A stretch of DNA of 38,614 nucleotides, taken from positions 1 through 38,614 of the forward strand of contig JBBDJZ010000008.1 in NCBI GenBank assembly GCA_040879625.1. Direction: 5' to 3'. Positions 803 to 24,721 of this stretch are shown in pieces. Made by a program: the position numbers and the translations under genes. This DNA comes from Minisyncoccota bacterium (GTDB lineage: Bacteria; Patescibacteriota; Minisyncoccia; Phycocordibacterales; JAXHMZ01). The notes beneath the pieces were generated by a model that was given only the letters and a program-made list of their open reading frames with translations, was not told where the DNA came from and searched no databases. Positions within the stretch are counted from its first letter, which is position 1. Each line of letters opens with the position of its first letter.

Positions 803-2335
803 TTACCGAGCGTACTCGGTTACTCGAGCTTCACGAATAACGTTCACCTTTATTTCGCCAGGGTAGCGAAGCTCTCCTTCTATTTTGCGAGCAATTCCTT
901 TAGCAAGTTCGAGCGCCTGCAGATCTGTTACTTTTTCGGGGGTTACGAAGACTCGTATTTCACGGCCAGCTTGCAGGGCGTATGCTTTTTCTACCCCCTC
1001 AAATGTGAGCGCGATGTCCTCCAAATCACTAAGTCTTTTGAGATAATTGTCCACGGTGTCCTTTCTCGCTCCTGGCCGAGAAGCTGAAATACTGTCTGAA
1101 ACCTGAACAATTTTTGACTCGAGACTTTCAAATGGATATTCTTCGTGATGTGCCTGCATTGCAACAATAATTTCTTTTTTTGCTCCAAACTTTTCTAAAA
1201 TACGTTTTCCAATTTCAACATGAGAACCTTGCGCTTCATGGTCTATTGCCTTTCCAATGTCATGAACGAGACCTGCTGTTTTTGCAACCATGACATCGGC
1301 GCCAACTTCTTCAGCAATCATGCCCGAAAGGTGTGCAACTTCAATTGAGTGACTTAATACGTTTTGTCCGTAGCTACTTCGAAAGTGTAACCTTCCAAGA
1401 ATAGAGACAATGCGGCTATCCAAATTATAAATACCACACTCATACACCGCTTCTTCCCCGCGTTCTTTTATAACCTTGCTCACTTCTACTTCTGCTTTTA
1501 GAACCTCTTCTTCAATTTTAGTTGGTTGGATACGTCCGTCTCGAATCAGGTTTTCAAGTGCAATTTGAGCAACTTGTCTACGGACGGGATCAAAACTAGA
1601 GATGAGAATCGCATTTGGAGTATCGTCAATAATGAGCTCAACTCCAGCAACTTTTTCAAACGCTCGGATATTTCTACCTTCTTTTCCAATAATTTTACCC
1701 TTTATATCTTCGCTTTCGAGAGAGACAAGCGTAGACATAATTTCAGGCGCAATTGATTTTCCGAGTCTTTGTATTGTGCTTGTTAGTATCTCGCGTGCTT
1801 TTGTTTGAAAGCTTTCCTCGCCTGTTATTTCAAGTTTGTGCAAGCGATGAAGGATGTCTTCTTCCTTTTCTTTTGTGATAAGAGTTAGCATTTCATGCTC
1901 AGCTTCGCTTTGTGTCATTTCCGCAACATCCCCCAGTTTTTGCTTGAGTTCCTTTTCAAGAGCGCTAAGTGTCGCTGAATAATGTTCGATTTGTTCGGTT
2001 TTTTCTTTTAGTTCTGCACCGTCAGAATCAAGAATAAGTTGGCGCTTGTCGAGCAATTCCTCTCTTTTTATAAGTCTGTTTTCAGTTGTACGCGCCTTTT
2101 TTTCAACATCGTCTACGTCTCTCAGTGCTCGCTCTCTCACTTCGTCCGCTCTCCTTTGTGCATCAGCTAAAATATTCTTCGCTTCTTCTCGGGCGTTTAA
2201 AAGAATCTGCTTTACTTCAAGCTCCATAGATCCTTTTTTCCCAAGAGAGACAAGCAGTCGCAAAAAATAGCCCGCAGCGATGCCAATAACGAGCGCGAAT
2301 GACATATAAAGAATGAGAAGGGTGTCTTCAACCAT
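803..2335 (-). CDS. rny: Ribonuclease Y (N-terminal TM helix, KH domain, HD domain)
   Basis: KH motif GKEGRNIRAFE and HD motif LVHDIGKA. I place the start at the internal ATG at 2335 (MVEDTLLILY...). The longer ORF start at 2413 lies inside the clpP terminator hairpin. Confidence 0.9.
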   Translation of the reverse strand: MVEDTLLILYMSFALVIGIAAGYFLRLLVSLGKKGSMELEVKQILLNAREEAKNILADAQRRADEVRERALRDVDDVEKKARTTENRLIKREELLDKRQLILDSDGAELKEKTEQIEHYSATLSALEKELKQKLGDVAEMTQSEAEHEMLTLITKEKEEDILHRLHKLEITGEESFQTKAREILTSTIQRLGKSIAPEIMSTLVSLESEDIKGKIIGKEGRNIRAFEKVAGVELIIDDTPNAILISSFDPVRRQVAQIALENLIRDGRIQPTKIEEEVLKAEVEVSKVIKERGEEAVYECGIYNLDSRIVSILGRLHFRSSYGQNVLSHSIEVAHLSGMIAEEVGADVMVAKTAGLVHDIGKAIDHEAQGSHVEIGKRILEKFGAKKEIIVAMQAHHEEYPFESLESKIVQVSDSISASRPGARKDTVDNYLKRLSDLEDIALTFEGVEKAYALQAGREIRVFVTPEKVTDLQALELAKGIARKIEGELRYPGEIKVNVIREARVTEYAR

Positions 2336-2401
2336 GATAGTTCGTATGTACTCTCCTATAATAGGGAATTTAAGGCGCTCTGTCGAACCAGAGTCCGATT
2401 T

Positions 2402-2431
2402 AAAAGGCTTCACCGTAAAGTGAAGCCTTTT
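2402..2431 (-). terminator. Intrinsic terminator downstream of clpP
   Basis: AAAAGGCTTCAC (2402-2413) pairs with GTGAAGCCTTTT (2420-2431) as a perfect 12-bp stem. The stem ends in a U-run on the minus strand. Confidence 0.6.
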
Positions 2432-2449
2432 AAAAACGGAAAGAAAAAT

Positions 2450-3043
2450 CTATTTTTTCAACAGGGGTTTGACAAGTACGCTGTCAATAAGGCCGTATTT
2501 CTTAGCTTCTTCGGCATCCATAAAAAAATCTCTTTCTACGTCGGCCTGTATTTTCTCAATTTTTTGACCAGTTCGTTCAGCGAGAATCTTATTAATTGTT
2601 TCTCGAGTACGAATAATATGTCGCGCGGTAATCTCAATGTCCGTCGCTTGACCTCCAACATTTGAAACCCATGGCTGATGGATCATTACCTCTGCATTTG
2701 GAAGGGCAGAACGCTTTCCTGGTGTTCCTGCTGCTAAAATAACAGCCCCCATAGAAGCAGCGAGACCAACGCATGTCGTTGCAACCTCTGCGTTAATGTG
2801 ATGCATGGTATCAACAATTGCAAGACCCGCTGTCGTTGATCCTCCGGGAGAATTTACATAGAGGTTGATATCTTTTTTCGGGTCTTCTTTTTCGAGAAAG
2901 AGAAGTTGCGCAATAATAGTATTCGCTACAGCGTCGTCTATTGCCCCACCCAAGAAAATAATACGATCTTTTAAGAGGCGTGAGTAAATATCATACGCTC
3001 GTTCTCCGAACTGTTCTTTTTCAATGACTGTTGGTATAAGCAT
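2450..3043 (-). CDS. clpP: ATP-dependent Clp protease proteolytic subunit
   Basis: 197 aa. Canonical S14 motifs NSPGG, AASMG (Ser), MIHQP (His) and ERD (Asp). Confidence 0.95.
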
Positions 3044-3084
3044 GGTGTTAATGGTACGAATCCTTGGGGTGAAGTCAAGAATAG

Positions 3085-4167
3085 TTACTTTTGATTTTCT
3101 AGATATGTAAACACACTTGCGTTAGCAAGCTGTGTTTCCACGTATATTTCTGCTCGTTCTTTATCAGCGGTCGGGTTGTGTTCTAAGAGATGAGAAACTT
3201 GATGGTCAACCTCCTCTTTCTTTGGGGTAAGATTTTCAACTGTCGCAATCTTATTAAGAATAAGTTGCATTTTAGCCCTGTTTTCTGCGTGGGGCCTCCA
3301 TTCTTTTAGCAGTTCTTCTACCGTTTTTCCCGCCTGAGTAAGATACTCTTCTAGCTTTAATCCTGACGCTGAAACATCTGCAGTAAACTGCGCCATCATA
3401 CTTTGAAGTTCGCTCTCAATAATCATGGTTGGAAGGGTAATTGTTGATTCCTCAAGAATTTTTTCCATAAGAGCCAAGCGGTGTTTTTCGTTAGCTTGGT
3501 TTTCTTTGTGTTTTTTCAAATCTTCTCGAACTGTTTGTGTGAATTCCTCGACCGTTTTCATTGAAGAAATTTTTTGCACCTTTTCGTCATCAAGAGGGGA
3601 TGGCTCATCAGTCTCTTTTGGTTCCTCGTTCTTGTTCTCGCTTGTTTCTTTTAAAGCCTCGGTTTCCTCTCCTTGATTTTCACGCCTATCAAGTTCTTTT
3701 CTTACTTCAAGTAGTGCGCGCCGAACCTCACCTTCGTCAAGTATCACCTCGCCTTTTGTACGGTTCAGTTCTTGCGCAATTTTTTTATAGTCTCCGATTT
3801 CTACTGCGGGCATGAGGGGCGTTTGAATCCTGAATTCAACAGGGTTGCCGGGCGCAATTTTGGTAAAACGTACCTCCGGTCGTCCAAATATTTCAAGCTT
3901 TTTTTCACGAATAATCGAGGGGTAAAGCTCGTTTAGTGTGCGGGTTGCAACTTCTTCTAGAAGCGCTGTTTCTGAAACGTGCTTCTTGATGACCGCTTCT
4001 GGTATCGAGCCTTTTCGAAAACCATCAAGAGAGAGGTTTTCAGAGAAGAACTGCAAAGCAGAATCCTTGTGCTTCTCGAGGGTGTCAAGTGAAAGGGTCC
4101 CTGTTATTACCGCTTCGTTATGCTCATTTGTTTCTACGGTTATGTTGTTCTCTGTAATGATTGACAT
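3085..4167 (-). CDS. tig: Trigger factor lacking the central FKBP-type PPIase domain
   Basis: The N-terminal ribosome-binding signature GFRKGSIP and a C-terminal TF domain are present. An acidic linker sits where the PPIase domain is expected. Start chosen at ATG 4167 (MSIITENN...). The tig-clpP adjacency is conserved. Confidence 0.8.
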
Positions 4168-4304
4168 GGTAATTAAATTAAGCCAAAAGCATACTATACG
4201 CATTTGAGGAGTTTCGTGCAAATGAGCACGCTCAACTCTGAAAGAAAGCAGATAAAAGACACCGCCACTTGGACGTTCTGCTGCTTTGCATTCTTGCGTT
4301 TTGA

Positions 4305-4697
4305 CTACTCAACAGACTCAGCATCAAAGTTGCTTTCTGAGTCTACCTCTCTATTTTCGAAACCTTCGAGTGCGTCAAGTTCTGCGTTGAGATTTTCCGA
4401 GTCGTCGATCTGCTCGCTTTCCTCAGAAAGAAGCGATTCTGATGGTTCTTCAGAAGTGTTGTTGCTCGTTTGAATAGAGCTTAGTTGATTACCATAGACG
4501 TATAAGCCTGCGAGGATAAGCAGTGCAAACAGAATGACCGTTCCAATAATTGCCCCTATAGGATTATGGTGTGGTTCTCGGGGGCTAAACTCAGGAGGGG
4601 TTTCTTTATTGGGAGAAGTGGTGTCTTCTTTATGTTGCTCGATATCCTCACTTGAATGGTTCTCATATTCCTTCATAGTATACTCAGTATATCCCAT
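4305..4697 (-). CDS. Hypothetical single-pass membrane protein with acidic termini
   Basis: 130 aa with one hydrophobic helix (IGAIIGTVILFALLILAGLYVYG) flanked by Glu/Ser/Asp-rich segments. I recognise no family. Confidence 0.45.
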   Translation of the reverse strand: MGYTEYTMKEYENHSSEDIEQHKEDTTSPNKETPPEFSPREPHHNPIGAIIGTVILFALLILAGLYVYGNQLSSIQTSNNTSEEPSESLLSEESEQIDDSENLNAELDALEGFENREVDSESNFDAESVE

Positions 4698-4755
4698 TCA
4701 AATAAAAAACTATCAACAGTGATAGTTTAATAAAGCACGCTCGTTTGCTCACTAT

Positions 4756-5301
4756 TTACTTGCTAAACTTTTGCTCGTAGAGTTTGACTGATTTTGTAAC
4801 AGCAGTAAGCGCCTCCTCTTTTCCGAGAATTCTTCTTATTTCAACGTGTTCAGTCACCGCTTTTTCGTCTTTAAGAATCTTGTAGGTTTCAAAAAAATGC
4901 TGAAACTCTCGCAGTGTATGCGGATTTAGGTCTTGGAGGTCGTGAATATACTCGAACCGTCTGTCATACACCGGAACCCCAATCACTTTGAAATCACTTT
5001 CTCCAGAATCAATCATTTCAATAACCGCAACGGGGCGAACCTTAACAAGGATGCCGGGATGAAGTGGATAGGTGGTGAGTACGATAACGTCAAGTGGGTC
5101 GTTGTCTTCCCACAGTGTCTGAGGAGCAAATCCATAGTCAAATGGAAATGAGGCAGAAGAGTAGTTTGCTCTATTAAGTGCAATAAGCCCTGTTTCTTTG
5201 TCAATTTCGTATTTGTTATTTGAGCCGCGCGGAATTTCAATAACAACGTTAATTTCATTAGGTGCCGTCTCACCGAGAGGCGTGTCGTGCCAAAGGTTCA
5301 T
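4756..5301 (-). CDS. ppa: Inorganic pyrophosphatase (family I)
   Basis: 181 aa. Contains VVIEIPRGSNNKYEID and a DPLDVIVL-type motif. Confidence 0.93.
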   Translation of the reverse strand: MNLWHDTPLGETAPNEINVVIEIPRGSNNKYEIDKETGLIALNRANYSSASFPFDYGFAPQTLWEDNDPLDVIVLTTYPLHPGILVKVRPVAVIEMIDSGESDFKVIGVPVYDRRFEYIHDLQDLNPHTLREFQHFFETYKILKDEKAVTEHVEIRRILGKEEALTAVTKSVKLYEQKFSK

Positions 5302-5394
5302 ATGTGTTGATAAATGTTACGAATAAAAAAGCTGAAACCTTGTTCAAGGAGAATGAATCTCTATGAAGAAAAGTGTTCTTATTGGGGGCACTAC

Positions 5395-6735
5395 TTACTC
5401 AGGTTTGTTCTCTGGGTCGCTCTCGTGATCTGTTTTCTCTGTCTCATCAGGAGTAACTATCGTTTCCGCTGAATCGCTTTCTTTGTCTACTGCCTCAATG
5501 AAAGCATGTTCACCATCATCCTCAAGAGCTTCTTTTTCTACTGGGGTTGTACCACTGTCGTTTGCAGGTACTGCTGTTTCCACCTCTTCTTGTCCATCGT
5601 CACCCACTGAATGAATTTCAATTTTCCATCCAGTAAGTTTTGCTGCAAGTCGAACGTTTTGGCCGCCCTTCCCAATAGCAAGCGACTGCTGATCCGGGGA
5701 CACTTCTACAAATGCTTTATTTTCTTCCTCGTTTATTTCGACCGAGAGAACGGAAGCTGGGGAGAGTGCGTCTTCAATAAATTTGTGTAAACTTTCTGAC
5801 CACTCAACAATATCTATTTTTTCACCTCCTAGTTCAGACATAACCGTAGAGACGCGCACCCCTCGTTGACCCACAAGGGATCCAACAGGATCAACGTTTG
5901 GGTCGTTAGAAAAAACAGCAATTTTTGAACGTGAGCCTGGCTCTCGTGCAATTGCGGTTATTTCAACAGTACCCGTTGCTACTTCAGGGGATTCTGCTTT
6001 AAAAAGTTCTCTTAAAAAGTCGGGGTGAGAACGGGACAAGCGCAGGAAAACACCTCGCCCGCCTTCTTCTACAACGTAGAGGAGTGCGCGTATTCGTTCA
6101 CCTTGTCGGAAGCGTTCTCCTGGAATCTGATCATCCCATCCAATAATTCCTACAGTTCGTCCCAAATCAACAAAAACTGAACCCCTCTCAACTCGTTGAA
6201 CAGTGCCGGAGACAATAGTTCCTTGCTTCTCTCCAAAATCTCCCATAACGGCGACCTTTTCTGCTTCGCGAATTTTCTGAATAATAACTTGCTTTGCAGT
6301 TTGAGCAGCAATCCGTCCATAGTCATCTTTTTTCTCCAGAGGGAAAACAATTTCTTCATCTAACTCTGCGTCTTTTTTTATTTTTCGAGCATCCTCAATA
6401 AAAATGTGGTGCTCAGGGTTGTATCTGCTCCGCAAGTCTTCCTCACCAGCTTCGTTTTTAGGAAGTTCTTCTTCCGCTTCGGTGGGCTCACCCTCTTCGT
6501 CCGTTTCAACGATTCGCACTGTTGAGTCGTCAACAACAATCTTTACTTGAAAAAACTCAACGTCCCCGGCATCAAGGTTGAACTGTGCTCGAACAATTTG
6601 TCCACGTTTTCCGTATTCTTTTTTGTAAGCAGTTGCAAGGGCAAATTCAATCGCCTCTATAACGCTCGCTCGTGGAATTCCTCGCTCGTCTTCCAATTCA
6701 CCAAGAACTGAATTGATTACTTTTAGATCAAACAT
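5395..6735 (-). CDS. nusA: Transcription termination/antitermination factor NusA with an acidic C-terminal tail
   Basis: Contains the N-terminal domain, an S1 domain (GTIVSGTVQRVERGSVFVDLG) and two KH domains (GQRGVRV, GKGGQNVRLA). Confidence 0.93.
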   Translation of the reverse strand: MFDLKVINSVLGELEDERGIPRASVIEAIEFALATAYKKEYGKRGQIVRAQFNLDAGDVEFFQVKIVVDDSTVRIVETDEEGEPTEAEEELPKNEAGEEDLRSRYNPEHHIFIEDARKIKKDAELDEEIVFPLEKKDDYGRIAAQTAKQVIIQKIREAEKVAVMGDFGEKQGTIVSGTVQRVERGSVFVDLGRTVGIIGWDDQIPGERFRQGERIRALLYVVEEGGRGVFLRLSRSHPDFLRELFKAESPEVATGTVEITAIAREPGSRSKIAVFSNDPNVDPVGSLVGQRGVRVSTVMSELGGEKIDIVEWSESLHKFIEDALSPASVLSVEINEEENKAFVEVSPDQQSLAIGKGGQNVRLAAKLTGWKIEIHSVGDDGQEEVETAVPANDSGTTPVEKEALEDDGEHAFIEAVDKESDSAETIVTPDETEKTDHESDPENKPE

Positions 6736-6761
6736 ATGTGATTTTTTGATTTTTAATAAAG

Positions 6762-6783
6762 AAAAAGCCCGTTATAGACGGGT
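6762..6783 (-). promoter_or_regulatory. Terminator-like hairpin inside the nusA 5' leader (possible attenuator)
   Basis: On the minus strand, CCCGU-CUAUA-ACGGG is followed by CUUUUUCUUU, about 25 nt upstream of the nusA ATG. Confidence 0.35.
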
Positions 6784-6819
6784 TACAATGCATACTATTC
6801 ATTCATTTCTGATACTTTT

Positions 6820-6847
6820 AGTATAATCAATATTCCAGGTCTGTCAA
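6820..6847 (-). promoter_or_regulatory. nusA promoter TTGACA-N16-TATACT
   Basis: The -35 is the reverse complement of 6842-6847 and the -10 is the reverse complement of 6820-6825. Confidence 0.55.
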
Positions 6848-6883
6848 TCGTGCACTGTTACATAACTGAAACGCCTCTATTTC

Positions 6884-6901
6884 AAAAAAAAAAGGGGGGG
6901 G
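6884..6901. repeat. Homopolymer pair A10 G8 between the divergent nusA and pilB promoters
   Basis: Direct count gives A at 6884-6893 and G at 6894-6901. Confidence 0.95.
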
Positions 6902-6927
6902 AAGTACACAGTGTGTAGGGAAAATTT

Positions 6928-6936
6928 TGGTATACT
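6928..6936 (+). promoter_or_regulatory. Extended -10 element TGgTATACT for the pilus operon
   Basis: TGGTATACT at 6928-6936 lies 11 nt before the ATG at 6948. No SD is present. Confidence 0.5.
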
Positions 6937-6947
6937 ATGAAGACGAT

Positions 6948-8699
6948 ATGCACCTTACCTCAGATCAGTTAAAAAACTTTCTTAAAGACACTCACATTGT
7001 TACTCCTCGCGACCTTGACGAAGCCGAAGGTGTCGCGCGAAAAAAGTCGATTTCACTCGGAGCTGCGCTTCTTGATACCGGACTTATTACGGAAGAAGAT
7101 TTACGACGGGTAAAGGCGAACATTCTAGGTATTTCTTTTGTAAATCTAGAAAATCAAGTAATTGAGAAAGAGATTTTGCGTCTCATTCCCGAGCCGATTG
7201 CTCGTACACATAATATTGTTTCCTTTAAAAAAACAGATACGACGCTTGAGGTTGCAATGCTTGACGTAGACGACCTGGCTGCAATTGGTTTTATAAAAAA
7301 GAAGACGGGCCTTAAAATTTTACCTCGCATAACCAATGCGCCTTCAATTAAATATGCACTTCAGCTGTATCAAAAGGATCTTAAAACAGAGTTCGGAGAT
7401 ATCTTAGAAAAAGAAGCCTCCCAGCTTAAAACTATTTCTCAGGAGGAGGGCTCGGAAATGAGCGAGGGAGATCTTAAAAAGCTTGCAGAAGAGCTACCTG
7501 TTGTGCGCGTTGTTGAAACACTCTTGAAGCATGCAATCATTCAGGGGGCATCAGACATTCATATAGAACCAATGGAAACGCAGCTTTTGGTCCGCTATAG
7601 AATTGATGGACTGTTGCACGACGCAATGGTGTTGCCTAAAACAGTCGCTCCAAACATAACTGCACGTATAAAGGTTCTTTCAAACCTGAAGCTTGACGAA
7701 AAGCGCCTTCCTCAAGACGGAAGATTTAAAGTAGAGAACGATACCGAAAAAGTAAGTTTTCGAGTTTCAATCCTACCCACGTCGTTTGGTGAGAAGACGG
7801 TCATGCGTCTTCTTCGCGAAAGCTCTGAAGGATTTACACTTGAAGGACTTGGGTTTCATGGTGAATCGCTTGAGCGGATTTATGCAGCAACAAAGCAGAC
7901 CACGGGGCTTATTTTGACCACTGGACCAACCGGGTCTGGTAAAACAACGACGCTCTATACGGTCCTCGATATTTTAAACACGCCTGAGGTTAATATTTCA
8001 ACCGTTGAAGATCCGGTTGAGTATCAAATGCCTCGGATTAATCAGACGCAAGTGCGTCCAGACATCGGTTTTACGTTTAGTGTAGGATTGCGAACGCTCG
8101 TTCGTCAAGATCCAGATATTATTATGGTTGGAGAGATTCGTGACACAGAAACTGCTAATCTTGCAGTAAATGCGTCCCTGACTGGACACCTTGTCCTCTC
8201 GACGCTTCACACGAACTCAGCAGCTGGAGCAATTCCGCGTTTGGTCGATATGAAAATTGAGCCATTTTTGATTGTTTCAACCATAAAGGTGATAATTGGT
8301 CAGCGACTCGTCCGTCGTCTGTGCGATAACAAAGAAAAGTATTTTTTGACTTCTGAGGAAATCATGAAGCTTGGAGAAACCGTTGACCTCGATCGTATTC
8401 TCACATTTTTAAAGGCAGAGCGCGCCGTTGGAGAAGATGCCAGTTGGGAGAAAATTCCGTTTTATCGACCAAAAGAAAGTAAGGACTGTGAAGACGGATA
8501 TGGGGGGCGAGTTGGTATTCACGAGGTTCTTCATGTTAATTCAGCAATTCGAGAGCTTGTCATGAAAGAAGCCACATCAGAAGATATAGAGGCCCAGGCA
8601 AAAAAGGACGGTATGATGACCATGATTGAAGATGGAATCTTTAAGGCAGTACAGGGACTTACAACCATAGAGGAGGTGCTCCGTGTTATCTCAGAATAA
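6948..8699 (+). CDS. pilB: Type IV pilus / T2SS assembly ATPase (PilB/GspE family)
   Basis: Has a GSPII_E N-terminal-like domain, Walker A GPTGSGKTTT and the Asp/His boxes. The TTG start in the ORF track (6927) overlaps the -10, so ATG 6948 is preferred. Confidence 0.9.
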   Translation: MHLTSDQLKNFLKDTHIVTPRDLDEAEGVARKKSISLGAALLDTGLITEEDLRRVKANILGISFVNLENQVIEKEILRLIPEPIARTHNIVSFKKTDTTLEVAMLDVDDLAAIGFIKKKTGLKILPRITNAPSIKYALQLYQKDLKTEFGDILEKEASQLKTISQEEGSEMSEGDLKKLAEELPVVRVVETLLKHAIIQGASDIHIEPMETQLLVRYRIDGLLHDAMVLPKTVAPNITARIKVLSNLKLDEKRLPQDGRFKVENDTEKVSFRVSILPTSFGEKTVMRLLRESSEGFTLEGLGFHGESLERIYAATKQTTGLILTTGPTGSGKTTTLYTVLDILNTPEVNISTVEDPVEYQMPRINQTQVRPDIGFTFSVGLRTLVRQDPDIIMVGEIRDTETANLAVNASLTGHLVLSTLHTNSAAGAIPRLVDMKIEPFLIVSTIKVIIGQRLVRRLCDNKEKYFLTSEEIMKLGETVDLDRILTFLKAERAVGEDASWEKIPFYRPKESKDCEDGYGGRVGIHEVLHVNSAIRELVMKEATSEDIEAQAKKDGMMTMIEDGIFKAVQGLTTIEEVLRVISE

Positions 8700-21471: not shown

Positions 21472-22383
21472 ATGAAGATATCATACAAACAGGCGAGTCT
21501 CACTCGAGAGAAAAGCACACTCTTTTTTCTTGTGCTTTTTTTTACACTCACAACGTTTGTCTCGTGGTCGGTTCTCTTTTTTACACGTTCCGAAAAACAA
21601 ATTCTTAGCGTGGTCATGCTTGATGTTGGGCAAGGTGACGCATTCTTTATTGAGTCTCCAGGTGGAACGCAAGTGCTGATTGATGGAGGTCGAGGGAGAG
21701 CAGCACTGCGCGAACTTTCAAAAGTAATGCCATTTTGGGATCGCTCTCTTGACGTGGTGGTCGCAACTCACCCCGACGCTGATCACATCGGAGGTCTTGT
21801 GCATGTTCTCGAACGATTTGACGTTTCGTATATTTTGCACACTTCGATTCAAAAAGACACGCCCGTGTTTCGTGCATATAGTGAAGCCGTTCTGGAAGAG
21901 GATCCTGTTATTGTCCCTTCTTCTCGAGGCACGAAAATTACTCTCGATGATTCGGTCGTTCTTACTATCCTCTCTCGTGAAGTTGTTGCAGCAAGCGATA
22001 CGAACGAAGCGTCGATTATTCTGCGACTTGATTATGGAGGTACCAGTTTTCTTTTTACCGGAGATGCGCCAAAAGAAACCGAGCAAGAACTTCTTCAGTT
22101 TTACTCTGTGCTCGACGTTGATGTTCTTAAGGTGGGACATCATGGCTCAGACACCTCAACTTCTACAGAATTTATTTCTGCAACGTCGCCCGACTTTGCA
22201 CTGATCTCAGTTGGAAAAGAAAACTCATACGGACATCCAGATGACGATGTTCTCCTGCGACTCGAGGACGCGGGTGTAAAGATTCTCCGAAGTGATGAAC
22301 GGGGGACGGTGCGTTTAATTTCCGATGGAGAAGGAGTGTTTGTAAAACCACTCCATTTCTTTGAAGAATTGCTGGGGCTCTAA
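21472..22383 (+). CDS. Membrane-anchored MBL-fold hydrolase equivalent to the ComEC C-terminal domain
   Basis: N-terminal TM helix, then LDVGQGDAFFIE, HPDADHIGG and KVGHHGS motifs typical of the ComEC metallo-beta-lactamase domain. Confidence 0.8.
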   Translation: MKISYKQASLTREKSTLFFLVLFFTLTTFVSWSVLFFTRSEKQILSVVMLDVGQGDAFFIESPGGTQVLIDGGRGRAALRELSKVMPFWDRSLDVVVATHPDADHIGGLVHVLERFDVSYILHTSIQKDTPVFRAYSEAVLEEDPVIVPSSRGTKITLDDSVVLTILSREVVAASDTNEASIILRLDYGGTSFLFTGDAPKETEQELLQFYSVLDVDVLKVGHHGSDTSTSTEFISATSPDFALISVGKENSYGHPDDDVLLRLEDAGVKILRSDERGTVRLISDGEGVFVKPLHFFEELLGL

Positions 22384-22389
22384 AAGAAC

Positions 22390-22417
22390 TTGACATATTA
22401 TCAATATGTGTTATTAT
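22390..22417 (+). promoter_or_regulatory. Promoter TTGACA-N16-TATTAT(ACT)
   Basis: -35 at 22390-22395 and -10 at 22412-22417. It shares GTGTTATTATACT with the promoter at 23751. Confidence 0.6.
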
Positions 22418-22445
22418 ACTGAAGTAGGTTCCTTAAGGAGGAATT

Positions 22446-22709
22446 ATGCTTGTCAGCAGGCGTGACGACGGTGCAAACAGGGCCAGTAGGGCTCGCAGGA
22501 AGAGCAGGGGCTCGGCAGCGCGGGATGCGCAACTCGAACTCGAACTCGAGGACGAACTCCAAGCTCTGCAGGGGGAACTCCAAGCTCTGCAGGACGAAAT
22601 CTACGACTGCTGGGCCTTCCTAGAGTTTCCTCTCGTGTGCGACTTAGACATGGGCGAGGTGCCTCCTGTCGGGTGTTACTGGGACGACGCAACCTCGGCC
22701 GACTACTAA
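22446..22709 (+). CDS. Hypothetical 87-aa protein: Arg-rich N-terminus, heptad-repeat middle, Cys/aromatic C-terminus
   Basis: Strong SD AAGGAGG lies 4 nt upstream. The patch is GC-rich and contains in-frame DNA tandem repeats. I recognise no family. Confidence 0.5.
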   Translation: MLVSRRDDGANRASRARRKSRGSAARDAQLELELEDELQALQGELQALQDEIYDCWAFLEFPLVCDLDMGEVPPVGCYWDDATSADY

Positions 22710-22788
22710 GCAACCTCCTCCATTCACATCACACAGGCCAGCTTCTCACGAGGCTGGTCACTTACTTTATACAAGCACAGGGAAAAAC

Positions 22789-22816
22789 TTGACAAAAGAC
22801 AATTACTAGATATAAT
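22789..22816 (+). promoter_or_regulatory. Consensus promoter TTGACA-N16-TATAAT
   Basis: -35 at 22789-22794 and -10 at 22811-22816. Confidence 0.7.
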
Positions 22817-22823
22817 ATTTACC

Positions 22824-22853
22824 CAACCTAGCAATAGGTTGTTTGATCTTTTT
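22824..22853 (+). promoter_or_regulatory. 5'-terminal hairpin plus U-tract in the leader of the ClpP-like gene (attenuator or stabiliser)
   Basis: CAACCTA-GCAA-TAGGTTG is a 7-bp stem with a GNRA-type loop. It is followed by TTTGATCTTTTT and starts at about the predicted TSS. Confidence 0.4.
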
Positions 22854-22893
22854 ATCCAAAACACATTTCTAGGCCCTTGAAGGAGAGGTAGTT

Positions 22894-23403
22894 GTGAAAG
22901 ATGAGTCTGAGCAAAAAGGACACCTCGATCCGCTCTGGTTTGGTGGTCGGGTGGACTACCCCTCTGTCAACCGTCTCGTTGATCAGATTACAGAACTGAC
23001 CCCAGAAGAAGGAATGCTTGAAGTAATCATTTCCTCGTTCGGAGGATATAACATCCCAGCGATTGATTTCGAAGTGTGGCTGTCGAGGTTTGAGAGAAAG
23101 GGAAACCTGCGGGCGATTGCTGGAACCGTTGTTGCTTCTGCTGGACTCACTTTGTTCTTGGGGTTCGAGCGGAGAACTGCGATTCAGAGATCCGTACTTA
23201 GATTTCATCACCTTTCGCTTTCTTCCGACAACAATGATTCGATGGACGAACTTCAACTCAAGCAGGAGGAGTTAAGCTTAATCGATTTCGTCGAGAAAAG
23301 GACGGGATTCACTCGCGCTCAAATCAAGGGCTACATGGATGACCGTACTTCTTTGTCTGGAGAGGATCTTTTTCTCTTGGGACTCTGCAATGAAAGACTA
23401 TAG
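22894..23403 (+). CDS. Truncated ClpP-like (peptidase S14 fold) protein
   Basis: It aligns by eye with the clpP in this window: SSFGGYNIPAIDF versus [18 protein letters not shown] versus AASMG (Ser), RFHH versus MIHQP (His), MDDR versus ERD (Asp). It lacks the N-terminal axial region. It has a GTG start with an AGGAG SD. Confidence 0.6.
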   Translation: MKDESEQKGHLDPLWFGGRVDYPSVNRLVDQITELTPEEGMLEVIISSFGGYNIPAIDFEVWLSRFERKGNLRAIAGTVVASAGLTLFLGFERRTAIQRSVLRFHHLSLSSDNNDSMDELQLKQEELSLIDFVEKRTGFTRAQIKGYMDDRTSLSGEDLFLLGLCNERL

Positions 23404-23435
23404 ACCGCCCCTGTGTTACAGGAGGCGGTCTTTTT
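23403..23435 (+). terminator. Intrinsic terminator
   Basis: GACCGCC-CCTGT-GTT-ACAGG-A-GGCGGTC is followed by TTTTT. Confidence 0.8.
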
Positions 23436-23473
23436 GATATACTACTTGTATAGTAGTTAAATAACATACAAAT

Positions 23474-23677
23474 ATGAATCCAGAAAACATGGGGGGTCCA
23501 ATTGGAAGTCCTGAAGAAGAAGAGATGGGACGGTTGGTGGAAGAGCGAGGAGCACTAAATGAGGAACTCATGCAAAATGCTGCAGGGGGCACGCTTAGTG
23601 ACGAGGCTATCGAAGCTAAGCAGAGGCGTATTGAGGAGATTGATGCAGTTCTTGCTAGTAGGTCAAACCGAGAGTAA
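23474..23677 (+). CDS. Hypothetical 67-aa acidic, helical protein
   Basis: The ORF sits between two terminators. It has no obvious SD and I recognise no family. Confidence 0.4.
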   Translation: MNPENMGGPIGSPEEEEMGRLVEERGALNEELMQNAAGGTLSDEAIEAKQRRIEEIDAVLASRSNRE

Positions 23678-23707
23678 GCTTGCTTTCATACAATGTCACT
23701 ATAAAAA

Positions 23708-23735
23708 GACCAAGCTCTAACAGCTCGGTCTTTTT
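23708..23735 (+). terminator. Intrinsic terminator
   Basis: GACCAAGC-TCTAACA-GCTCGGTC (one mismatch) is followed by TTTTT. Confidence 0.7.
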
Positions 23736-23750
23736 AATATGTAGAGTGTG

Positions 23751-23779
23751 TTTACAAATATAAATAAACGTGTTATTAT
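23751..23779 (+). promoter_or_regulatory. Promoter TTTACA-N17-TATTAT(ACT)
   Basis: -35 at 23751-23756 and -10 at 23774-23779. Confidence 0.55.
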
Positions 23780-23834
23780 ACTACTAGAGCAGTTTCTCGT
23801 CATTTCTGCCTAAACCACACAGAGGGAGAGTTTC

Positions 23835-24401
23835 GTGAGAAAAGAATTCGCCATAAGCAAAGGTCGCGCGGCTTTTCTCAGCGTTTTTCTGTATGTATTA
23901 CTCGGAATAGCGCTGTCTTCGTTTGTCGTTCCTATGGTTCAAGGAGAACAGCCGCTCCTTCCGTCAATCTACGAATTCCCGCTTGGGCCTGAGTCGGTCA
24001 TCTTTCTCCGGTCCACCGCCTTCAACTCGCTTGAAAGTCAGACAGATTCAACGCCATTCATTACGGCAACGGGGGAAACGACTCGTCCTGGACTGGTTGC
24101 GTTGTCCCGCGATCTTTTGGAAACTATTCCCTACGGATCGATTGTTGAGATTCTCGACATTCGACCTCGAGAAGGGAATCCAAATGGATGCGGGGCGACA
24201 ATGAAGACCATTAGGCGACTTGAAACGCTACCGGGATTAGAACCCGGGCAGTTCCAGGTTGAGGACACAATGCATCCGAGAAAGGAAAACCAACTTGATA
24301 TGTGGTTGGAACACCTTGAGGATGCTCGGCGCTGGGGTGTGTGCGAGATTGTGATTCGTGCCCCAGATCAGGAGTCAGTTCTTTTTGCACTTGGAAAGTA
24401 G
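23835..24401 (+). CDS. Signal-anchored 3D-domain (MltA/RlpA-like double-psi barrel) protein, a putative cell-wall glycosidase
   Basis: N-terminal TM helix, a TAFNSLESQTDSTPFITATGE motif and three spaced Asp contexts (LSRD, VEDTM, QLDMW). It has a GTG start with a GAGGGAGAG SD. Confidence 0.55.
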   Translation: MRKEFAISKGRAAFLSVFLYVLLGIALSSFVVPMVQGEQPLLPSIYEFPLGPESVIFLRSTAFNSLESQTDSTPFITATGETTRPGLVALSRDLLETIPYGSIVEILDIRPREGNPNGCGATMKTIRRLETLPGLEPGQFQVEDTMHPRKENQLDMWLEHLEDARRWGVCEIVIRAPDQESVLFALGK

Positions 24402-24424
24402 TCGAAAGTGTTACGTGTGCGAAC

Positions 24425-24468
24425 AAAAAGGGCGAGCTTCATTTTCTGAAGCTCGCCCTAAATTTTTT
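24425..24468. terminator. Bidirectional intrinsic terminator (3D-domain gene and rpmB)
   Basis: An A-run, then GGGCGAGCTTC-ATTTTCT-GAAGCTCGCCC, then a T-run. Confidence 0.8.
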
Positions 24469-24478
24469 GTCTTGACTG

Positions 24479-24721
24479 CTATATGAGACCTGCTTTTTTC
24501 AGTGTTTCGTATGCGCCGTTTTTTTGAATTGTTTTCAACCCTTTTGTAGAAATATCTACCGTTACGGTTTTGTTCAATTCAGGTACAAAAATTTTCTTCT
24601 TTTGAATATTTGCGTACTTTCGTACTTTTCCTGTTGGATTGAACTGAGTAGCACGCGTACGGTTTGAGTATCCGCCGCCTACCTGTGAGCTTTTTCCTGT
24701 GATTGCGCAAGTCTTTGCCAT
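24479..24721 (-). CDS. rpmB: 50S ribosomal protein L28
   Basis: 80 aa, MAKTCAITGKSSQVGGGYSNRTRATQ... Confidence 0.9.
   Translation of the reverse strand: MAKTCAITGKSSQVGGGYSNRTRATQFNPTGKVRKYANIQKKKIFVPELNKTVTVDISTKGLKTIQKNGAYETLKKAGLI

Follow-up and report, generated by a model that had tools for sequence, protein, structure and literature searches.

Mixed ClpP1P2 cores are common among ClpP peptidases, whose N-terminal loops gate the pore (PMC8182300). Two accessory paralogs are the closest described systems for the protein considered here. In Pseudomonas plecoglossicida, the second ClpP (PpClpP1; PDB 9UXT) is divergent, its N-terminus being truncated and its triad consisting of Ser-His-Pro (PMC12900304). 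The PpClpP1 tetradecamer has lost the N-terminal region, displays an axial pore of 42.7 Å, and fails to bind ClpX. Its peptidase activity is weak and requires Ser and His, whereas the third residue can be mutated with ~60% of the activity left; together with its canonical paralog, PpClpP1 forms a heterotetradecamer of higher activity (PMC12900304). ClpP1 of Listeria has a Ser98-His123-Asn172 triad, is by itself an inactive heptamer that does not bind chaperones, and is activated in the ClpP1/2 complex (PMC9257651). Here, we describe a 169-residue ClpP-like protein (the target) encoded by contig JBBDJZ010000008.1 of a Minisyncoccota bacterium, which was analyzed over its full length of 38,614 nucleotides (the window) and also carries the canonical clpP gene. 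N-terminally short ClpP paralogs whose triads deviate from the canonical one have been described before; the family of the target is a separate, rarer lineage, distinguished by a shorter handle and by an Arg at the canonical Asp position.

The target is very probably a ClpP-fold protein belonging to the ClpP family (MEROPS S14, Pfam CLP_protease). BLASTP comparison with the ClpP of the window returned nothing useful (E value of 1.3 over 8 residues), Pfam gave no match for the target itself at E values up to 1, and phmmer found no match for it in the PDB. Searching the whole genome with PF00574 retrieved the canonical clpP gene as the sole match. In contrast, the profile of the narrow family to which the target belongs aligned with the window's own ClpP with an hhalign probability of 92.8% and an E value of 4.1e-7, at ~16% identity, and matched the solved ClpPs of the PDB with an E value of 3.6e-10, the best match being 4jcq. 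Four relatives (P0003, P0005, P0006, and P0008) passed the Pfam CLP_protease cut-off of 20.2 bits, with scores of 24.8 to 32.2 bits and with matches that always begin near model position 19 to 30. Since plain BLASTP and Pfam fail with the protein itself and profiles succeed, the homology is remote but real.

Structure prediction led to the same assignment. The AlphaFold2 model of the target (predicted local distance difference test [pLDDT] score, 89.4; predicted template modeling score, 0.84) was built on an alignment of 125 ClpP-like sequences, an input that is itself ClpP-like. Comparison of this model with ClpP structures by Foldseek gave a probability of 1.0, template modeling (TM) scores of 0.75 to 0.78, and a root mean square deviation of ~3.2 Å over ~163 columns. 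The model obtained from the single sequence was all-helical, with a pLDDT score of 43, and was worthless. The original prediction, made from the letters of the window, had proposed a second, N-terminally truncated ClpP-fold protein based on five blocks aligned by hand with the window's ClpP, and had suggested profile and structure searches as a check. All five blocks were recovered by hhalign and MAFFT (SSFGG with NSPGG, VASAG with AASMG, RFHHL with MIHQP, MDDRTSL with VERDFFM, and LGLCN with YGLID), and the profiles, the Pfam scores of the relatives, and Foldseek all pointed to ClpP. A Ser-Lys peptidase of the SppA/S49 type was also considered and was ruled out by the lack of a match of the target to PF01343 (SppA/peptidase S49) and by the presence of an invariant His (His105) in the ClpP His column.

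Alignments placed the predicted nucleophile (Ser82) and the predicted general base (His105) of the target on the catalytic Ser and His residues of ClpP. These two residues and the Gly50-Gly51 pair are invariant in the family and in 125/125 of the aligned ClpP-like sequences. Arg94 is likewise invariant, and both residues of the Arg93-Arg94 pair are kept in the window copy. The canonical Asp column is occupied by Arg151, and counting without gaps from the C-terminal G-L, which is conserved, gave the same register. The target and its three closest relatives all have Arg151, preceded in each case by Asp or Glu at position 150, so that the R-D pair of ClpP appears as D/E-R in these proteins. In members further away, the canonical column holds Glu, Asp, or Asn. 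Thus, the Ser-His-Asp triad of the original prediction stands for Ser82 and His105, which are kept and family-invariant, but not for its third member, as the canonical column holds Arg and only the neighboring acid at position 150 is conserved. The offset by one residue that had been noted for the Asp was correct, Asp150 being located one position before the canonical column.

The target also departs from ClpP at its N-terminus and in the handle. According to hhalign and MAFFT, residue 14 of the target aligns with residue 29 of ClpP, and the axial loop and helix A of ClpP (28 residues) are replaced by 13 unaligned residues that were modeled with low pLDDT scores. An in-frame TAG codon at positions 22870-22872, 7 codons upstream of the GTG start, limits the open frame to 176 codons and leaves no space for a longer N-terminus, indicating that a wrongly called start does not account for the short N-terminus. 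The N-terminal axial region is therefore missing, as initially proposed. Two residues are deleted after the Ser helix relative to ClpP. The handle contains a 7-residue gap in helix E in the MAFFT alignment, and the Gly-rich strand is replaced, with 34 residues separating the His from the RTG motif versus 38 in ClpP, making the handle ~4 residues shorter in net terms. Consistently, the corresponding helix of the AlphaFold2 model (residues 119-136) is only 18 residues long and follows a loop of lower confidence. The residues of the unfoldase pocket are unconserved even in the window's own ClpP in the MAFFT alignment; thus, the pocket sequence of the target is uninformative on ATPase docking.

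The open reading frame (ORF) encoding the target is a genuine gene and looks like a complete transcription unit, with a promoter, a Shine-Dalgarno sequence, and an intrinsic terminator (see the table below). Both promoter boxes and their position relative to the gene are kept in L009, a syntenic contig from the Joint Genome Institute (JGI), as is the terminator. The latter has a folding energy of -22.4 kcal/mol (z score of -5.68), and none of 200 shuffled sequences (0/200) was equally stable. Compared with shuffled sequences, the complete leader shows no excess folding stability (z score of -0.28), so that the hairpin located at its start is only a putative feature. A 134-codon ORF overlaps the gene on the minus strand (22852-23256) and was treated as a shadow frame.

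Features of the ClpP-like gene and of the comparator clpP gene in the window
Feature	Position	Strand	Basis
ClpP-like coding sequence, 169 aa, GTG start	22894..23403	+	ORF list; profile, structure, and alignment evidence
Gly50-Gly51 codons, ClpP SPGG oxyanion-hole motif	23041..23046	+	Aligned to NSPGG of the window's ClpP
Ser82 codon, predicted nucleophile	23137..23139	+	On the ClpP catalytic Ser (hhalign, HMMER, MAFFT)
His105 codon, predicted general base	23206..23208	+	On the ClpP catalytic His (hhalign, HMMER, MAFFT)
Asp150-Arg151 codons	23341..23346	+	Arg151 in the canonical Asp column, Asp150 at -1 (hhalign, HMMER, MAFFT)
Promoter, sigma-70-type, TTGACA-16-TATAAT	22789..22816	+	12/12 match to the consensus
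Leader-start hairpin, 7 bp, followed by a U-rich run	22824..22841	+	Terminator scan
Shine-Dalgarno sequence GAAGGAGAGG	22879..22888	+	5 nt upstream of the GTG, read from the sequence
Intrinsic terminator, 13-bp bulged stem and UUUUU	23403..23435	+	Immediately 3' of the stop codon
Canonical clpP (comparator)	2450-3043	minus	Pfam CLP_protease, E value of 3.5e-81

The ClpP-like family is very rare and patchy. Exhaustive HMMER scanning of 1.84 billion representative proteins gave 17 matches at E values of ≤0.001. About 8 of these belong to the narrow family, which includes P0002 (45% identity to the target), P0003, P0005, P0006, P0008, the fragment P0007, and the 544-residue protein P0004. P0018 came from a word-index search and is 45% identical to the target by global alignment and 47% by BLASTP. 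The word-index protein search performed with the single target protein returned only itself. No further family member was found among GTDB species genomes, IMG/VR, GenBank phages, plasmids, or 400 sampled genomes of the phylum, and a metagenome scan returned only the already known contig. Residues 89-139 of the target also weakly resembled proteins of ~590 residues from many related genomes; this was a chance match with the N-terminal domain of a PilB/GspE-type ATPase (IDFVKKKTG) and was discarded. The gene encoding P0008 (L012, 164-643) is located ~0.7 kb upstream of genes for a reverse transcriptase (RT)-Cas1 fusion, Cas2, and a Cas10-like protein (1315-8643; type III CRISPR-Cas). The CRISPR-Cas locus is separated from it by an opposite-strand gene encoding 119 residues, and this single case may be a coincidence.

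In P0004, which originates from a JGI metagenome and has relatives P0144 to P0146, a single chain carries three ClpP-like domains in tandem. Only the second of these has both catalytic residues, the His being absent from the first domain and the Ser from the third. The arrangement is reminiscent of SppA with its tandem domains and may point to a ring symmetry that is not sevenfold. In a maximum-likelihood tree that left out the solved paralogs (4jcq and 9uxt), the family, including two P0004 domains, forms a clade with a long stem, supported at 99% by the Shimodaira-Hasegawa-like approximate likelihood ratio test. The clade lies among poorly resolved noncanonical ClpP-like proteins, and canonical ClpP and phage ClpP-scaffold fusions form a separate clade (97%). 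The window copy is 44% identical to its sisters, which are 54 to 60% identical among themselves.

The assembly of the host genome (508 kb, 53 contigs) is 95% complete. The ClpP-like gene lies ~20 kb from canonical clpP, the only other gene of the ClpP family in this genome. The gene order around it is RNase H, ComEC channel, superoxide dismutase, ComEC-type metallo-β-lactamase nuclease, four small cassettes, rpmB, M50 protease, rpsL, rpsG, and fusA. The four cassettes (22390-24468), each with its own promoter and terminator, consist of an ORF encoding 87 residues, the ClpP-like gene, an ORF encoding 67 residues, and a gene for a signal-anchored protein of 188 residues. The same order is found in contig L009 (identical in DNA to L010 and L011; all three carry P0018), in which the cassette promoters and terminators are conserved. 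Identity between the window and L009 is 75 to 98% for the housekeeping neighbors, 57% for the 188-residue protein, 45% for the ClpP-like protein, 33% for the 67-residue product, and 18% for the 87-residue product. In a genome of the same genus (G001; locus L026, G001:C5:211300-214400), the slot of the ClpP-like gene holds an unrelated ORF, which encodes an acidic product of 394 residues with no Pfam match and follows an identically positioned promoter. This genome has retained homologues of the 67- and 188-residue cassettes (71 and 194 residues, respectively). The ClpP-like gene is thus an accessory, swappable chromosomal cassette, and its small neighbors do not depend on it, since their homologues are kept in a genome that lacks it.

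The proposal that the 87- and 67-residue neighbors could be substrates of the target found no support, as the 67- and 188-residue cassettes persist in G001 without the ClpP-like gene, the 87-residue product is unconserved in L009, and the genes have separate promoters and terminators. The absence of capsid, portal, and terminase genes, also put forward initially, was confirmed, the neighbors being housekeeping genes; the ClpP-like gene is chromosomal, with a gene order conserved in L009, and is not located in a prophage. Several observations were made on the other cassettes. The 87-codon ORF, whose product is Arg-rich (22446-22709, plus strand; 7564-7827 in L009), shares its position, length, promoter, Shine-Dalgarno sequence, and terminator with its L009 counterpart and is, given the identity of the products, either extremely fast-evolving or noncoding. 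The 188-residue protein (23835-24401, plus strand) belongs to no Pfam family and matched only phrog_24247 (E value of 8e-6). An Rfam scan of positions 22300-24500 gave subthreshold matches only, and PADLOC returned only a meaningless DrmC match (E value of 0.0067).

The genome encodes one Hsp100-type ATPase, composed of 896 residues (G000:C17:165-2855, minus strand; L039), in which a KIGFAG loop occurs together with a long coiled-coil middle domain of the ClpB type. The loop occupies the position of the VGF loop by which ClpC docks on ClpP. The assembly, which is 95% complete, yielded no ClpX (the best TIGR00382 match scored 23.8 bits), and this ClpB/ClpC-like ATPase may be the sole unfoldase partner of the canonical ClpP.

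Comparison with canonical ClpP reveals a common fold (TM score of ~0.77), with collinear Ser, His, GG motif, K/R-R pair after helix D, and C-terminal G-L. The target differs from it by the loss of the axial loop and helix A, the shorter handle, the 2-residue deletion, the Arg in the Asp column, and subthreshold Pfam scores. Similar to PpClpP1, the target is a second, divergent ClpP encoded at a locus separate from canonical clpP, with an N-terminus shortened by >15 residues, Ser and His kept, and a residue other than Asp at the third position. The PDB entry 9uxt was matched from its residue 4-5 onward, with E values of 6e-7 (profile A1) and 2.2e-18 (profile A3). Unlike PpClpP1, in which the third residue is Pro, the target has Arg151 with an acid at -1. 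The distance from His96 to Pro151 is 55 residues in PpClpP1 versus 46 for the equivalent segment of the target, which has a shorter handle. The sequence kinship of PpClpP1 with the target is no closer than that of other ClpPs, and the tetradecamer, the hetero-complex, and the activity demonstrated for PpClpP1 are hypothetical in the case of the target.

Listeria ClpP1 (PDB 4JCQ, 4RYF, and 6SFX) provided the best solved-structure match of the family profile and is, like the target, an accessory paralog present beside a canonical ClpP, with an impaired triad, in this case Ser-His-Asn. It is itself unable to bind AAA+ chaperones, which may be a further likeness to the target. In contrast to the target, Listeria ClpP1 has a full-length N-terminal region and handle and is far nearer to canonical ClpP. 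The entry 4jcq is taken to be LmClpP1. This assignment is in line with a figure legend of the PpClpP1 study (PMC12900304) and with the N-to-D change that distinguishes 4jcq from 4jcr.

Accessory second ClpP-like genes also occur in Parcubacteria of the same order, where they encode Ser-His-Asn paralogs of ~195 residues (e.g., P0021). These genes (L007, 1324-1908, in G027; L002, 1489-1998, in G025; proteins P0020 to P0138) are present in ~5 of the 60 sampled families of the order. In alignment A4, which contains 125 sequences including the family of the target, Ser and His are invariant and the Asp column is occupied by Asn in 98/125 sequences. One of these paralogs, P0020 (169 residues), likewise has a short N-terminus, and its alignment with the target has an E value of 8e-8. 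The Parcubacteria paralogs differ from the target in forming their own clade (97%, versus 99% for the clade of the target's family), in having a full-length handle, and in their genomic contexts. This second family is annotated in the sources only as ClpP protease subunit or as hypothetical. Phage head maturation proteases (NF045542 and phrog_1684) share with the target a ClpP fold that has no dedicated unfoldase, as well as weak profile matches; differences include the lack of head-morphogenesis neighbors and of relatives in IMG/VR and among GenBank phages, scores far below the cut-off, and another position in the tree. The comparison with phage prohead proteases made in the original prediction is superseded by a closer precedent, the cellular accessory paralogs of the ClpP1 type (PpClpP1, PMC12900304; Listeria ClpP1, PMC9257651).

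What could such a protein do? Our tentative reading, which we regard as plausible although slightly short of probable, is that the target is a rare, fast-evolving accessory ClpP paralog working as a stand-alone open-pore Ser-His ring peptidase. Judged separately, the stand-alone open-pore mechanism is to be taken with a little more reserve. It would involve assembly of the target into ClpP-like rings, the axial pore of which would be permanently open because the gating loops are missing. Peptides or unfolded chains would be cleaved by the Ser-His pair, to which Asp150 would bring help at most, and no unfoldase would dock through N-terminal loops. The enzyme would act alone and without an ATPase, as a self-contained cassette. 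Action alone is slightly favored over stacking on the housekeeping ClpP ring because the handle is altered, because the gene evolves fast and forms a cassette of its own, and because of the three-domain fusion in P0004. The latter, with its His lost in domain 1 and its Ser lost in domain 3, fits poorly with a simple 7-fold ring. The gene's own consensus promoter and terminator and its absence from the same-genus genome point in the same direction. Several considerations weigh against this proposal. The family's best solved-structure match, 4jcq, is presumably LmClpP1. A ClpP ring that never closes could harm the host, but a consensus promoter precedes the gene. The terminal branch of the window copy has a length of 1.4 versus ~0.4 for its sisters, which could mean relaxed constraint. 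Finally, Listeria ClpP1, PpClpP1, and M. tuberculosis ClpP1P2 stack on canonical ClpP, as do nearly all second ClpPs studied (PMC8182300, PMC9257651, and PMC12900304). These precedents suggest that the target might instead be a ClpP1-type partner, forming a heptamer stacked on the housekeeping ClpP ring, with the 896-residue ATPase docking only on the ClpP face and the short subunit adding or tuning active sites. We consider this alternative rather unlikely. It draws on the activation of Listeria ClpP1 in ClpP1/2 (PMC9257651), the enhanced activity of PpClpP1 in the heterotetradecamer (PMC12900304), and the common occurrence of mixed ClpP1P2 cores (PMC8182300). It also agrees with 4jcq being the best solved match of the family profile, with 9uxt also matched, and with a genome that encodes exactly one canonical ClpP and one Hsp100 with an IGF-like loop and in which no ClpX was found. 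A partner ring is, however, difficult to reconcile with ~16% identity to the cell's own ClpP, with a fast-evolving gene that is dispensable in a genome of the same genus, with triple-domain relatives that misfit a 7-fold ring, and with a separate, long-stemmed clade not placed beside canonical ClpPs. The shorter, unconserved handle, which makes the ring-ring contact in ClpP, is a weak argument in the same sense.

The remaining explanations appear less probable. The long terminal branch, together with changes in 25 of the 74 columns that are invariant in the three closest relatives, would also be expected if the target were a catalytically weak or dead ClpP-like protein, acting as a ClpR-like scaffold or regulator, or if the gene were drifting to loss under relaxed selection. 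The replacement of the canonical Asp by Arg151, the scores of the protein below every Pfam threshold, and the absence of the gene from the same-genus genome fit with this possibility. We nonetheless consider it improbable, as the reading frame and the expression signals are intact, no catalytic residue has been lost (the protein retains Ser82, His105, Gly50-Gly51, and Arg93-Arg94), columns conserved family-wide show only 4 changes, all of them mild, and the third triad residue is dispensable in PpClpP1 (PMC12900304). Equally improbable in our view is that the family does not comprise ClpP partners but a new type of unfoldase-independent ClpP-fold ring peptidase, non-heptameric or single-ring, which could serve in phage defense or host interaction. 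This would account for the three-domain fusions with complementary loss of His and Ser, the short handle, and the swappable cassette in a fast-evolving islet, the role in defense or host interaction being suggested by the one relative found beside a type III CRISPR-Cas locus with RT-Cas1. A related and still less probable option is a protease cassette of a conflict system (phage defense or host interaction) residing in a fast-turnover islet, for which the open-pore ring would be a triggered effector. The slot indeed contains four small genes that are transcribed separately and evolve fast, the unrelated 394-codon gene takes the place of the ClpP-like cassette in G001, P0008 is encoded ~0.7 kb from the RT-Cas1/Cas2/Cas10 locus, and the family is very rare and patchy. 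Against this, the only PADLOC hit was DrmC, there is no linked sensor or partner gene, the CRISPR adjacency is one case with an opposite-strand gene in between, and the neighbors are housekeeping genes. Least probable of all, and in our opinion highly unlikely, is a remnant of a phage ClpP-like head maturation (prohead) protease. Weak matches to phrog_5410 (E value of 2.4e-4), phrog_1684 (E value of 0.02), and NF045542 (16 bits) and the presence of phage ClpP-like proteins among the top BFVD structural matches are what such a remnant would show. However, the NF045542 score is to be compared with a cut-off of 120 bits, searches of IMG/VR, GenBank phages, and plasmids detected no relative, the surroundings lack portal, capsid, and terminase genes, the chromosomal synteny is conserved in L009, and phage proteases group with canonical ClpP in the tree, apart from the family of the target.

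As it stands, this family is a modest extension of the known diversity of ClpP paralogs. Besides Asn and Pro, which were already known at the third triad position of short ClpP paralogs, it provides a third variant, in which R-D is apparently swapped to D/E-R. It also indicates that ultrasmall uncultivated bacteria can encode short ClpP subunits on accessory cassettes that are rare and evolve fast. In this organism, the ClpP-like gene is found in a host with minimal proteostasis, comprising one ClpP and one ClpB/ClpC-like ATPase, with no ClpX found. If the target were an ungated, ATPase-independent peptidase or a non-heptameric enzyme, it would offer a natural test case for the regulation of the ClpP fold without a gate.

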